NCBI GenBank assembly: GCA_043809265.1
Contig: JAZDDY010000093.1
Location: 1-44,705 of the forward strand
Direction of reading: 5' to 3'
Length of the DNA stretch: 44,705 nt
DNA from: Candidatus Iainarchaeum sp.
GTDB lineage: Archaea; Iainarchaeota; Iainarchaeia; Iainarchaeales; DTGL01
Shown in pieces: positions 26,176 to 32,023 of this stretch. Under the pieces are notes generated by a model that saw nothing but the letters and a program-made list of their open reading frames with translations, was not told where the DNA came from and searched no databases. The first letter of the stretch is position 1, and every line of letters starts with the position of its first letter. A program made the translations under genes and the position numbers.

Positions 26176-26265
26176 TGGACTGGCTGGGGCTCGAACCCAG
26201 AGCCTCCACAACTTTGGCCTCTTCGAAGTTGCCAATGTGGCGATCTACCATTGATCTACCAGCCC
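26176..26265 (-). tRNA. tRNA-Ala (anticodon GGC) with an 18-nt anticodon-loop intron
   Basis: Acceptor GGGCUGG/CCAGUCC includes the G3:U70 Ala identity pair. D stem GAUC/GAUC, anticodon stem CCACA/UGUGG enclosing 25 nt (UUGGCA + intron). Intron GCCAA pairs with the anticodon region (bulge-helix-bulge-like). T arm CUGGG-UUCGAGC-CCCAG. Confidence 0.85.
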
Positions 26266-28305: not shown

Positions 28306-29583
28306 ATGAAATCCCTTTCGCTTGGAAAAATTTTCGGCATCGGCCTTGAACTCCACTGGTCCTTTTTGCTCATAGGCCTTTTCGTCGTGGTGGCGCTTGC
28401 CCTGGCCGAGCCTTCGATGCTTGCCCCGATGCTCATGGTTTTCTTTTTCCTTTTTTTGAGCGTTTTCCTGCACGAGCTGGTGCACTGCGTTGTGTCCCTC
28501 CAGCGCGGCATCGGCGTCAAAAAAATAATATTGCTGCCGATAGGCGGCGTTTCACTTACCGAATCGCTGCCTGAAAAGCCCAAAGACGAATTCCTGATAG
28601 CGGTCAGCGGCCCGGCATTCAATTTCCTTGTTGTTTTTGCAGTCCTTTTCCTGGTGTCGGTTCTTCCGCTGCCTTTCCCGAGGGAATTATTATCGAACCC
28701 AAGCGCGCTCGATTCTTCAGAGGCGGCGGCAGCCGCATTCCTTTCAATGCCTTTGTTCACTGTTTTCTGGGTGAATCTTATACTCGGCACGTTCAATCTT
28801 TTCCTTCCGGCGCTGCCGCTTGACGGCGGCAGGGTTTTCCGCTCACTTCTTTCCTTTGCTTTCGGTTACAGGAAAGCCACGGCCATTGCGACAAGGATAA
28901 GCTCTTTGATCGCAATTCTGCTTTTCATTTCCGGCTTCCTTTCGGGAAACCTTTTGCTTTTGGTCATTGCGGCATTTGTTTTCTTCGGCTCCAAGGAAGA
29001 GGAAAAAATAGTGCTGATGAAAGAACAATTGAAAGGGTTGAGCATTCCGCAATTGGTTTCAGAAAAACCGCTCCTGCTTGACAGCCTGATGGGTGTCAGT
29101 GAAGCCTTTGAAAAAATGCTTGCGGAAAAGAAAACCGAAGCGGTAACGGAAATCGAAGCAGGCAGGTATGCGGTCCTTTTGCTTGAGGAAATGCCCTCGC
29201 TTATGGGCAAAAAAACAATGCCGCTTTACAAGGCGCTGAAGGAAACGCCGGCGCTTCAAATCAGCGAAAGCCCATCCAAGGTCTTTGAAAGAATGGCTTC
29301 AGCTGGAAAACGCGTGCTTCCGGTCCTTGACGGCTCGGCCCTTGCGGGAATAATCGACCTTGAAAAAATCGAAAAATCCGTTCTGTTCTCAAGGGCAGGC
29401 GCAATGCTCGGCGCAAAGCCGCCTGAACCAAAGGCAGCCCTAACTGAAACCGCCTTGCAGCCCCGGCCTGAACCGGCGCCTCTGGCCCCAACCCCAAAAA
29501 AGCCGGCTGCCGGAAAGAAAAAAGCGCGCAAACCAAGGGCAAAAAGCAAGGACAAGCCTTTAAAAAAACAAAACCGCAAATAA
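28306..29583 (+). CDS. site-2 protease (peptidase M50) with CBS-domain region and lysine-rich tail
   Basis: HELVH (HExxH) within a TM helix, NLFLPALPLDGGRV (NxxPxxxLDG), a C-terminal CBS-like pair, and finally a P/K-rich tail. Confidence 0.85.
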   Translation: MKSLSLGKIFGIGLELHWSFLLIGLFVVVALALAEPSMLAPMLMVFFFLFLSVFLHELVHCVVSLQRGIGVKKIILLPIGGVSLTESLPEKPKDEFLIAVSGPAFNFLVVFAVLFLVSVLPLPFPRELLSNPSALDSSEAAAAAFLSMPLFTVFWVNLILGTFNLFLPALPLDGGRVFRSLLSFAFGYRKATAIATRISSLIAILLFISGFLSGNLLLLVIAAFVFFGSKEEEKIVLMKEQLKGLSIPQLVSEKPLLLDSLMGVSEAFEKMLAEKKTEAVTEIEAGRYAVLLLEEMPSLMGKKTMPLYKALKETPALQISESPSKVFERMASAGKRVLPVLDGSALAGIIDLEKIEKSVLFSRAGAMLGAKPPEPKAALTETALQPRPEPAPLAPTPKKPAAGKKKARKPRAKSKDKPLKKQNRK

Positions 29584-29678
29584 TCATCCTGCTGTCAGGC
29601 AGCATACCTCAAAAACTATTTTCAGGGGAAATCCACTCTCTGCTTTTCAATAAAAGCTGTTTTTTTATTCCTTTTAAC

Positions 29679-30395
29679 ATGGCGGATGTTGAAACAAGCA
29701 GGGCCAACGCGAGAAAAAGATGGTTAAAAGTTCAAGCGGAACAAAGACTTAAGTTAACGAAGACGGATGCCAAAACACTTGCATTCAAGGCCAGGCTATT
29801 GGGTTTTTTAGCCGGAGACGGGAGCGTTTTTATCCACGTTGACAAGTCGAAAAAATATCCTATGCCTTGTTTTAATATCAATTTTTATCCAGACAATCTT
29901 GAGATGGCTAAAGCTTACCTTGCCGCTTTTGAGGCGGTTTATGCTAAAAGGCTTCGACTTGAAAAACCAGAAAAAGAAAAGTTTTATACTATCAGAACCA
30001 AGCACAAAGTCGCTTATGAAGACTTGGTTTCAATAACTTCTTTCGGGGTTTATAAGTGGGATGTTCCTTTTGGCTTCTTGACCACGGATGAAATGAAGGC
30101 GGAGTGGGTTAGGGGCTTTTTTGATTGTGAAGCACATGTTGGCAAAAGAAAAATCCAGGTGCAATCAGTCAACCAGCCGGGGTTGGCCGGCGTTAAAGAG
30201 TTATTGCGTGATTTGGGAGTGAAAGCCTCAAAGATTTATTCTTACAAGAGAAAAGAACCTAATTGGGGCACAAATTACCATTTGGAAATACCGCCGTCAG
30301 AAATAGCAAAATATTATTATAAAGTTGGCTTCAACCATTCTAGTAAGCGCAACAGTCTTAGTGGACTAATTGCCGAGATGGGAGAGTCCGGTTAA
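29679..30395 (+). CDS. free-standing double-motif LAGLIDADG homing endonuclease
   Basis: Motif 1 is LLGFLAGDGSV and motif 2 is WVRGFFDCEAHV, about 100 aa apart. 238 aa and AT-richer than surrounding genes. The last 24 nt overlap the tRNA-Ser 5' end. Confidence 0.75.
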   Translation: MADVETSRANARKRWLKVQAEQRLKLTKTDAKTLAFKARLLGFLAGDGSVFIHVDKSKKYPMPCFNINFYPDNLEMAKAYLAAFEAVYAKRLRLEKPEKEKFYTIRTKHKVAYEDLVSITSFGVYKWDVPFGFLTTDEMKAEWVRGFFDCEAHVGKRKIQVQSVNQPGLAGVKELLRDLGVKASKIYSYKRKEPNWGTNYHLEIPPSEIAKYYYKVGFNHSSKRNSLSGLIAEMGESG

Positions 30396-30477
30396 ATCCG
30401 CCAGCCTCGAGAAGCCTTTTTTATCGGGCAAGCTGGTGTGCCTTTGGCACGCGGGGGTTCAAATCCCCCTCTCGGCG
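30372..30477 (+). tRNA. tRNA-Ser (anticodon CGA) with ~19-nt anticodon-loop intron
   Basis: Acceptor GCCGAGA/UCUCGGC plus discriminator G. Anticodon stem CCAGC/GCUGG encloses 26 nt (CUCGAG... + intron; intron UCGGG can pair with CUCGA). Long variable arm GUGCC-uuu-GGCAC. T arm GGGGG-UUCAAAU-CCCCC. Confidence 0.8.
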
Positions 30478-30577
30478 TCAATCTTCTATTTCGGATAAGG
30501 ATTTAACCAAAAAAGACATTGAAGATTTAGTGCAGCATTCCGAAGGGAAAATTTCGAGTTCTGGGGGCAGCCAGTTA

Positions 30578-31138
30578 TTATTGCTTGTATGATTCAACTA
30601 GAAAAACTGCCGCGGCATAATCGGCAAAATTGGATTTAATGATTTTGACTTTGCCGTTGTCCTGCCAAATAAAAATCTTCAGGGGAACGCGTTTAATTGT
30701 GCCATCCCAATTATCAGTAAGAATTAGGGCTCCTCTATCGCTTTTTTTGGTGTAGCCCATCGCAAATTTGCTGGCCATTGATTGTTCAATCGCTTCATTC
30801 AAAAAAATCATATCCAAATTTTGAATCTCTATTTCGTAATAGGCTATTTGGGGGCTATAACAGTCACAGCATCTGTCGCCCTCGCATTTGCAGCAGTCCT
30901 CTAAATAATCAAAATTAAGTGTCAGTTTACTTGCGGAAGCAATGGCAATTTTATCGAACGCTTTATTAAAATCCGAATTTAGGGTTTCTTTGTCTATCAA
31001 TTCTTCATTTTTGTTTAATAAGATTGGGCTATTGGCTGAATTCTCCCCTAAAGCGTTCAAGGCCAATAGTCCTGCAATTAGCAAGATGATGGCAATGATG
31101 CCGAGAGACAACAATGCGATTTTTCTTCTCATAATCAA
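30578..31138 (-). CDS. hypothetical membrane-anchored protein with Cys cluster
   Basis: N-terminal TM helix (IALLSLGIIAIILLIAGLLAL) and DCCKCEGDRCCDC. The start abuts the htpX stop. Confidence 0.45.
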   Translation of the reverse strand: MIMRRKIALLSLGIIAIILLIAGLLALNALGENSANSPILLNKNEELIDKETLNSDFNKAFDKIAIASASKLTLNFDYLEDCCKCEGDRCCDCYSPQIAYYEIEIQNLDMIFLNEAIEQSMASKFAMGYTKKSDRGALILTDNWDGTIKRVPLKIFIWQDNGKVKIIKSNFADYAAAVFLVESYKQ

Positions 31139-32023
31139 TCACATTGCCCTTAATCTCTTCACCCTTTCTTCGAGCGGCGGGTGTGTGGAGAAGAGGTTGT
31201 TCAAAAAGCTCTTGTGGTTCTTGAGGGGATTCACAATGTATAAGTGCGCTGTGGCCTTGTTTGCGGCTTCAAGCGGTTCCTTGTCTTTTGAAAGTTTTTC
31301 GAGCGCCGAAGCAAGGCCTTCCGGGTATCTTGTGAGAATTGCTGCGCTCGCGTCCGCAAGGTATTCGCGTTTCCTTGAAAGTGCCAGTTGCATGAGCATT
31401 GCGATTATCGGGGCGAGGATTGCCATCGCAATTGCTATGACAAGCAAAACCAGGCCGAACTTGCCGTTGTTGTCCCTTTTGCCGCCGCCCCACCAGAAGG
31501 AGCGCAGCATCCAGTCGCTCAACAATGCAATCAATCCGACCATTACTGTTACAAGCATCATGAACCTGATGTCATAGTTGCCGATGTGGGACATTTCGTG
31601 CGCTATCACTCCCTCCAATTCGGCGCGGTTCATTTTCTGCATGAGGCCGGTGGTGACACAGATTACTCCGTGCTGCGGGTCCCTCCCTGTCGCGAAAGCG
31701 TTCGGTGCAGTGTCTTCTATCACGTAAATTTTGGGTTTTGGGATTCCTGCCGCAATGGAAAGCCCTTCGACTATGTTGTCAAGGAATGTATCCTCTTGGT
31801 GGGTTGCTGGCCTTGCCCTGCTGATTTTCAGGACTATCGTGTCGGAATAATAGTAGGTGAAGAAAGCCATGAGGATTGCTATTATCAGGGCAAATATAGC
31901 GCCGAAATAGCCCCAGCCGGTAATGAACCCGAAAAGCAGGCCCATGCCTATGCAGAACAAAAAGAAAAAGAAAAACAAGAGGTATGACGACCTCTTGTTT
32001 GATGCAACGTGCTCCCAAATCAC
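31139..32023 (-). CDS. htpX: HtpX-family M48 zinc metalloprotease
   Basis: HEMSHIGN (HExxH), four TM helices, and a downstream REYLADASAA region. Confidence 0.88.
   Translation of the reverse strand: MIWEHVASNKRSSYLLFFFFFLFCIGMGLLFGFITGWGYFGAIFALIIAILMAFFTYYYSDTIVLKISRARPATHQEDTFLDNIVEGLSIAAGIPKPKIYVIEDTAPNAFATGRDPQHGVICVTTGLMQKMNRAELEGVIAHEMSHIGNYDIRFMMLVTVMVGLIALLSDWMLRSFWWGGGKRDNNGKFGLVLLVIAIAMAILAPIIAMLMQLALSRKREYLADASAAILTRYPEGLASALEKLSKDKEPLEAANKATAHLYIVNPLKNHKSFLNNLFSTHPPLEERVKRLRAM

Follow-up and report, generated by a model that had tools for sequence, protein, structure and literature searches.

Free-standing LAGLIDADG genes of DPANN archaea, probable homing endonucleases with a fixed home at the 5' edge of tRNA-Ser

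Introns, inteins and the intergenic regions of phages are the known locations of homing endonucleases. Zeng, Bonocora and Shub reportedly described in 2009 a collaborative form of homing, in which F-CphI lies beside the intron-containing psbA gene of a cyanophage. Phage T4 carries SegB, a free-standing GIY-YIG homing endonuclease encoded inside a cluster of transfer RNA (tRNA) genes, which cleaves this region in genomes devoid of the gene and passes to the progeny along with the flanking tRNA DNA (PMC2330249). Here we describe a free-standing gene of the LAGLIDADG type that precedes and overlaps a tRNA-Ser(CGA) gene in the DPANN archaeon Candidatus Iainarchaeum sp. (assembly GCA_043809265.1, 1.23 Mb, 86% complete). 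The whole stretch analyzed, hereafter the window, is contig JAZDDY010000093.1, positions 1-44,705, and coordinates are window positions unless another locus is named. An earlier reading of the letters alone (the sequence-only reading) had pointed to this locus. T4 SegB may be regarded as the closest functional analogue, both being free-standing endonuclease genes lodged at tRNA genes. However, SegB is a GIY-YIG enzyme encoded between tRNA genes of a phage genome, whereas the present family is of the LAGLIDADG type, resides in cellular archaeal genomes and borrows its stop codon from one specific tRNA, which SegB does not. We know of no fixed link of SegB to a single tRNA species across phyla. 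In a literature search, no archaeal LAGLIDADG gene with a fixed link to tRNA-Ser or to the 5' flanks of tRNA genes came to light, and the niche between a tRNA promoter and the first nucleotide of the tRNA (+1) thus appears to be new. The loci compared below suggest that, in at least three archaeal phyla, a family of cellular genes apparently occurs exclusively in the promoter-to-+1 gap of one tRNA species.

The open reading frame (ORF) is predicted to encode an intact, monomeric two-motif LAGLIDADG homing endonuclease. Its product carries the motifs LLGFLAGDGSV and WVRGFFDCEAHV and matched Pfam LAGLIDADG_3 (PF14528) with 41 bits against a cut-off of 22.5. Searching the PDB with a profile of 13 family members recovered the intein endonuclease PI-PfuI (1DQ3, 5.8e-17), and in the profile alignment D47 (in GDG) and E151 (in FFDCE) corresponded to D149 and E250 of PI-PfuI, which we take to be the catalytic residues of that enzyme. 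The AlphaFold (AF2) model of the 238-residue protein (predicted local distance difference test, pLDDT, 92; predicted template modeling score, pTM, 0.87) displays an N-terminal helix followed by two alpha-beta-beta-alpha-beta-beta-alpha units, and Foldseek retrieved with it PI-PfuI first (E 1e-11), then many I-DmoI entries (template modeling score ~0.8). The two-motif assignment of the sequence-only reading was thus upheld, with PI-PfuI and I-DmoI as the best structure matches and the protein's own family located at tRNA-Ser genes. D47, E151 and K192 were invariant in 30-31 of the 31 intact relatives, the single exception being a gap; all conserved residues are kept in the window's ORF, which is full length. 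The ratio of nonsynonymous to synonymous substitution rates (dN/dS) indicated purifying selection (0.13-0.20 in the five pairs whose dS was not saturated). It was 0.18, with dS near saturation, between the window and locus L004, the other carrier in the genus. No helix-turn-helix domain appeared among the Pfam matches of the protein or of an N-terminal extension found in some relatives. The ORF was said to be AT-richer than its surroundings, and this proved correct: its GC content is 41.4%, against 48.9% for the genome and 50-51% for the two flanking protease genes, which places it at the 0.6th percentile among 717-nucleotide (nt) windows of the genome.

I-DmoI and I-Tsp061I, both encoded in introns of ribosomal RNA genes, and the intein-encoded PI-PfuI are archaeal monomeric LAGLIDADG enzymes that have this fold and the two catalytic acidic residues in common with the window protein, and they all target conserved genes for stable RNAs or proteins, as the present family probably does. 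They are encoded, however, inside a self-removing intron or intein, whereas the ORF of the window lies outside the mature RNA, between promoter and +1. In contrast to the I-DmoI arrangement, it is not contained in a bulge-helix-bulge intron; the 19-nt intron of the tRNA holds no ORF, and the endonuclease ORF lies 5' of tRNA position 1.

The tRNA gene itself is well supported. In a local search it matched the Rfam tRNA model with 45.1 bits against a gathering score of 29 and thus passed the covariance-model check, having been missed by the whole-window Rfam gathering run and by ARAGORN without its intron option. ARAGORN -i detected it with the intron 2 nt off and called it Ala(cgc); the anticodon calls of this program (Ala, Phe, Thr and others) were unreliable for intron-bearing copies and were replaced by a rule-based finder and inspection. 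Parsed by hand, the gene has an acceptor stem of seven base pairs (GCCGAGA/TCTCGGC), the discriminator G73, a variable arm of 16 nt, hence a type II tRNA, a T arm GGGGG-TTCAAAT-CCCCC and, once the intron is removed, the anticodon loop CU-CGA-GA. The intron region folds as a 3-nt bulge, a helix of 4-5 base pairs and a loop, that is, a relaxed bulge-helix-bulge, in agreement with the intron-containing tRNA-Ser(CGA) first proposed. Whole-genome ARAGORN found only Ser(GCT), Ser(GGA) and a single Ser(CGA) gene in this 86%-complete assembly. The TAA stop of the ORF corresponds to positions 20a-21 of the D loop. The sequence-only reading had attributed the last eight codons of the ORF to the tRNA; the TAA in the D loop and the 24-nt overlap stand, but seven sense codons (AEMGESG) are involved, the preceding Ile codon not being tRNA-encoded.

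The junction between ORF and tRNA turned out to be a property of the whole family. We compared 38 loci from species-representative genomes and metagenome-assembled genomes of Iainarchaeota, Micrarchaeota and Woese/Nanoarchaeota with 80 metagenome contigs independent of them. A tRNA-Ser was present at the 3' end of the ORF in 36 of the 38 genome loci, including four decayed copies, and the two loci without it were distant or partial matches. Where the end of the ORF was intact (32 genome loci), a type II tRNA started at -117 to +74 nt from the stop codon, and within -33 to +74 nt in all but one. Seventy-one of the 80 metagenome loci passed a strict tRNA-Ser rule; three of the others had no downstream sequence and the remaining six proved on inspection to be tRNA-Ser genes with a T-loop intron, an A at position 8, several introns or, in one case, an opposite-strand orientation. 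The linked anticodon was CGA in most loci and GGA in a subset, whose proteins formed one clade (support 93/86), indicating a single switch of isoacceptor. Position +1 of the tRNA fell on codon position 1 in 41 of the 71 metagenome loci (binomial p 4e-5, the sequences not being independent), and the commonest state was a 15-nt overlap ending at the D-loop TAA (27 of the 71). Stopping at this TAA, with an overlap of 15 or 24 nt, was also commonest among the relatives as a whole, and their C-termini ASVPESG, ADVA and AGVA aligned as translated tRNA 5' ends. As a rule, therefore, the element does not supply a stop codon itself but relies on one formed by conserved nucleotides of the tRNA. Since the same junction recurs in more than 100 independent loci, the overlap is not due to chance, and the observation that the ORF really runs into the tRNA is confirmed. 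The family is small: a search of 1.84 billion cluster representatives yielded 137 clusters at E<=1e-10, of which 41 remained at E<=1e-30.

Some endonuclease-linked tRNA-Ser genes (L125/L128, L165/L182, L002 and L169) have non-canonical structures, among which are a T-loop intron, an acceptor/D-arm insert together with an interruption of the T loop, and a pair of introns around the anticodon; one such locus has its tRNA-Ser(CGA) in inverted orientation, convergent with the endonuclease ORF. The N-terminal extension mentioned above is a domain of ~85 residues (MRVKLEKPYLNEFF...) with no Pfam match, found in some Iainarchaeota members (L095 3126-4082, minus strand; L097 3005-3925, minus strand; L096 1510-2463; P0002). 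It is present in G015, G097 and P0002 and absent from the window protein and from most members in other phyla. A frameshift, or a sequencing error, separates this domain from the nuclease core in G012, where each occupies its own frame. P0013 (454 residues), the best match in the representative library, has twice the normal length, aligned with two separate parts to the query and may have arisen by tandem fusion of two members of the family.

Comparison with empty loci located the insertion. The window's family and a second Iainarchaeales family share a conserved gene order, M50 protease followed by tRNA-Ser(CGA). In G057, a genome of the same genus with an empty site, the M50 protein is 85% identical and the tRNA starts 12 nt past the M50 stop codon (12-15 nt after the upstream gene in the empty sites of the genus). 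The aligned sequence of this empty site reads ..AAATAATCAT|ATTAAT|GCCGAGATGG. The left flank of the window is 83% identical to G057 at the DNA level up to 29587, where the shared flank ends; the tRNA starts at 30372. Empty sites were also found in G058, G059 and other genomes of the window's family. The second family showed the same pattern, with filled loci in G012 and G015 against an empty one in G016, again directly after the M50 stop codon, and so did Micrarchaeota, where the locus is filled in G196 and G352 but empty in G307 and G353, the flanking genes there being a divergent TIM gene and tRNA-Ser(CGA). These comparisons bear out the suggestion that the endonuclease was inserted immediately 5' of the tRNA. 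In G057 a TTTAAAAA box lies at -35 to -28 of the tRNA +1, with near-identical boxes in G058 and G059. In the window this box is retained to the left of the insert, within the 3' end of the M50 gene, while the tRNA lies to the right of the insert, so the insert is placed between the inferred TATA box and the +1 of the tRNA. The inserted element has a GC content of 40.6%, and a left-end motif, TCAG(A)GGCA..TACCTCAAAAA..TTTT, is common to the elements of the window, G012 and G015. The coordinates of all these features are collected in Table 1.

Table 1. Features of the endonuclease and tRNA-Ser(CGA) locus, in window positions
Feature	Position	Strand	Basis or remark
M50-type membrane protease gene, left flank	28306-29583	+	ORF list; Pfam Peptidase_M50 on the syntenic gene of L004
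Inferred TATA box of the original tRNA-Ser promoter, TTTAAAAA	29559-29566	+	Position in G057; now ~810 nt from tRNA +1
Inserted element, ~780 nt	29588-30365	+	Alignment with the G057 empty site; left edge sharp, right edge +/- ~6 nt
Candidate TATA box of the endonuclease gene, AATAAAAG	29649-29656	+	Sequence reading; centre ~27 nt before ATG
Free-standing two-domain LAGLIDADG homing endonuclease gene, 238 amino acids	29679-30395	+	ORF list, Pfam, structure model
Candidate tRNA TATA box within the ORF, AAATATTATTATAAA (codons K-Y-Y-Y-K)	30309-30323	+	49-63 nt before tRNA +1
tRNA-Ser(CGA) gene	30372-30477; exons 30372-30411, 30431-30477	+	Rfam 45.1 bits, hand parse
ORF-tRNA overlap, 24 nt	30372-30395	+	tRNA positions 1-21, AEMGESG + TAA
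tRNA intron, 19 nt, canonical 37/38 position	30412-30430	+	Fold

The ORF is separate from the flanking protease gene and not embedded in a host protein, Rfam found no group I intron or other family besides the tRNA in 29300-30700, and the ends of the insert are unpaired; the gene is thus free-standing, as originally stated. A group I intron or structured RNA around the ORF was rejected on the Rfam result, and a giant bulge-helix-bulge or processing stem on the end-pairing energy (-30.6, against -29.7 +/- 4.4 for shuffled sequences). A cassette bringing its own replacement part of the tRNA was likewise discarded, 29300-31300 containing only short matches at chance level and no duplicated tRNA fragment. 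In the tRNA-disruption model, archaeal tRNA genes serve integrase-type elements as sites of attachment (Sugahara et al., 2012; PMC3293823). The present element resembles them in its conserved tRNA landing site and in its presence/absence variation among close relatives. In contrast to them, it lacks an integrase, has neither duplicated an att site nor left a tRNA fragment behind, consists of a single nuclease gene and is located at the 5' part of the tRNA, not at the 3' part. Variable DNA adjoins the tRNA on its 3' side as well: in the window, 30487-31138 holds a 186-codon minus-strand ORF of 38% GC, Cys-rich, with a signal or transmembrane start and no Pfam match, which fills the gap to an M48 protease gene, and the same interval holds ~2 kb of unrelated sequence in G057 and almost nothing in L004.

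The distribution of the family was patchy. True members (>270 bits) occurred in four of the 196 genomes of the window's order, where all other matches remained below 112 bits and were generic LAGLIDADG domains, mostly in long intein-type frames. In a Micrarchaeota order, six of the 151 genomes carried the endonuclease. Within the genus, it was absent from the three genomes other than the carriers, that is, the window's genome and L004, and these two were not sisters according to M50, the window grouping with the empty G057 and L004 with the empty G059 (64% identity). Copy number was one in each of the six host genomes checked, the window's included, and broken or frameshifted copies were found in L037-L044 and G012. 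The data as a whole agree with a family that has persisted for long, has often been lost and has moved among close relatives.

The introns of the tRNA gene bear on how carriers might be protected. The 19-nt intron of the window shares its 5' end (AAGNCTTT..) and its 3' end (CGGGCA) with the 89-nt intron of G058 and is, judged from these ends, a deletion derivative of the 65-144-nt native intron of relatives. An imported tRNA allele, acquired by co-conversion, was not supported, because both ends of the native long intron are retained and the left flank beside the insert is ~94% identical to that of G057. Among the Iainarchaeales carrier alleles, four of five have short introns (19, 18, 14 and 15 nt) and that of G097 has none. 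The empty alleles of the window's own family all bear introns of 25-144 nt; those of G016 and G011, in the second family, are intron-less. Intron-less linked tRNA-Ser genes (82-86 nt) form a substantial minority of the whole (L009, L011, L016-L018, L021, L031 and ~20 metagenome loci), which weakens an immunity model based on the intron. Differences in the D arm were also dismissed as the determinant of immunity, since G058 has no endonuclease and yet has a D arm of the window type. The native introns at loci without endonuclease (L088-L094, in G057, G058, G059, G050, G048 and G056) are 65-144 nt long, lie at the canonical position of tRNA-Ser(CGA) and have in common, in three genera, a hairpin core rich in repeats (CCCTTTTCTTTCTTT...AAAGAAAGAAAAGTGTAAGTTGCCC).

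In our view, the window's gene is probably a free-standing, monomeric two-domain LAGLIDADG homing endonuclease of a family whose fixed home is the 5' edge of DPANN tRNA-Ser genes. The enzyme would cut tRNA-Ser loci that lack its gene, at a target that most likely extends across the insertion point into the first 10-25 nt of the tRNA gene, which are conserved; with the occupied allele as template for repair, the gene would then be copied in, and the element would persist by transfer, mostly among related lineages. The tRNA side is constant across phyla whereas the left flank differs (M50, TIM and others), which suggests that a conserved half of the target lies in the first part of the tRNA. If so, the family would provide ~100 diverged natural meganuclease scaffolds whose likely targets, the 5' regions of tRNA-Ser genes, could be predicted from their own flanks. 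Several observations weigh against this interpretation. The sequence left of the insertion point is unconserved between phyla, so a target at the junction would comprise one conserved half-site. The divergence of the endonuclease tracks that of the hosts (53% identity vs 54% for M50 between the window and L004, 69% vs 70% between G012 and G015) and its tree follows the host phyla; recent horizontal transfer is thus not demonstrated, and long vertical residence with many losses fits equally well. No co-conversion tract was visible beside the insert, in the same stretch of left flank that is nearly identical to G057, and no relatives were found in the viral contigs of IMG/VR.

Homing could also be collaborative, acting in trans, with the cut inside the tRNA body, for example at the 37/38 site of intron-less alleles, and the neighboring intron protecting the carrier and spreading with the gene. 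The resemblance to F-CphI lies in a free-standing endonuclease gene adjoining an intron-bearing gene, where the intron could protect the carrier allele, although the intron is here of the protein-spliced bulge-helix-bulge type and in the F-CphI system of group I. The short introns of the Iainarchaeales carriers, the empty and intron-less alleles of G016 and G011, the position of the intron only 40 nt from the insert, where it would co-convert, and the many linked tRNA-Ser genes interrupted by up to three introns, of which some fall within the T loop or the acceptor/D region, are all in line with this scenario. We nevertheless consider it unlikely: the intron-less minority of linked genes does not show the intron dependence of the F-CphI type, the empty alleles of the window's family already bear introns, and the window's intron is a shortened native one rather than an import. 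Very improbable, in our opinion, is a domesticated LAGLIDADG protein inherited vertically and serving as a transcription or maturation factor specific to the tRNA-Ser locus, or as a nuclease guarding this locus against integrating elements. Purifying selection, a phylogeny that largely follows host phyla with a divergence equal to that of a host gene, the absolute linkage to one tRNA species and the variable DNA on both sides of the tRNA would all suit such a role. However, the gene is present in only 2-4% of genomes in two orders, same-genus relatives keep the tRNA without it, decayed copies exist and its composition is atypical for the genome. Moreover, domesticated proteins of the WhiA type have lost their catalytic residues and gained a helix-turn-helix, whereas in the present family the catalytic residues are invariant and Pfam revealed no helix-turn-helix.

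The window copy might instead be a resident that is no longer mobile, intact but trapped by resistant recipients nearby or by rare recombination between cells, and heading to decay. It shares only 53% identity with the closest relative known, neither recent transfer nor co-conversion has left a visible trace, it lacks the N-terminal domain of G015, G097 and P0002, and the ancestral upstream TATA-like box is degenerate. This nonetheless seems quite improbable to us, given the full-length ORF with all conserved residues, the low dN/dS of the window-L004 pair (dS near saturation) and the fact that most members in other phyla are also without the N-terminal extension. A bolder and rather doubtful proposal would be a guild of DPANN LAGLIDADG enzymes, each aimed at one tRNA gene body, which by cutting would favor and by homing would disperse the unusual and multiple introns of these genes, or else a shared transcript in which RNase P deletes the stop codon of the endonuclease. 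The guild, if real, would be the first concrete selfish-nuclease explanation for the accumulation of introns in archaeal tRNA genes, and the contribution of such nucleases to the archaeal tRNA intron load is a question that the locus raises; the shared transcript would couple tRNA maturation to the silencing of a selfish gene.

The preferred reading, a homing endonuclease resident at the tRNA 5' edge, also raises the question of how an apparently single-copy tRNA keeps working with its promoter ~800 nt away. As the sole tRNA-Ser(CGA) gene found, it must still be expressed. The answer could be read-through combined with RNase P, or a promoter rebuilt inside the coding sequence, and there are two candidates for the tRNA promoter, the retained TTTAAAAA upstream of the insert and the TATA-like box embedded in the ORF. 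For the endonuclease itself, the promoter candidate AATAAAAG would give a leaderless mRNA; TTTTAAAA lies at ~27-30 nt before the endonuclease start codons in G012 and G015. Any full-length mRNA has to include the first 24 nt of the tRNA gene or more. The window's genome encodes an RNase P RNA (142 bits), so that a read-through precursor could be processed, and co-transcription with release of the tRNA by RNase P, as initially suggested, seems plausible on these grounds. Transcripts reading through from either the promoter of the endonuclease or the old one of the tRNA would be trimmed at +1, a cut that would remove the last seven codons of the ORF and its stop codon. One RNA molecule could thus yield either the full-length protein, if translated before processing, or the tRNA, and the two products would compete.

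Alternatively or additionally, transcription of the tRNA could start from the embedded TATA-like box ~55 nt before +1. In the columns of AAATATTATTATAAA, relatives display T[TA]T-TTA-AA[AT], mostly 51-69 nt before the tRNA +1. Of 57 sequences, 40 used TTA as the Leu codon of that column, whereas TTA accounted for 21-47% in 13 further columns of conserved Leu, and in the window's clade the residues YLK have changed to YYY while the stretch is still purely A/T. This hints at a constraint on the embedded A/T stretch at the DNA level, against which it must be said that the TTA bias may have another cause and that the sequences are phylogenetically related. In a profile of 89 loci, T occupied position -1 of the tRNA in 79%; a sharp internal TATA box at -27 was rejected, since the profile contained there only a weak, codon-periodic A-rich signal, the stronger signal being the one described above at ~-55.

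Other tRNA genes of the window's genome carry introns as well (12 of the 40 detected). A second one in the window, at 26176-26265 on the minus strand (Rfam 57.3 bits), has an insert of 18-20 nt in the anticodon loop and was called Ala(GGC) by ARAGORN; other genes with this call have introns of 18 and 90 nt, on contigs C72 and C113, and contig C111 bears at 1442-1718, on the minus strand, a tRNA-Trp(CCA) according to ARAGORN with a 203-nt intron. Finally, other free-standing LAGLIDADG_3 families of the window's order also adjoin tRNA genes (L056 1067-2133, L057 1342-2139 and L072 1366-2082): two related ORFs follow tRNA-Pro(TGG) at a distance of 60-270 nt, and one ORF converges on an intron-bearing tRNA-Ile(GAT).

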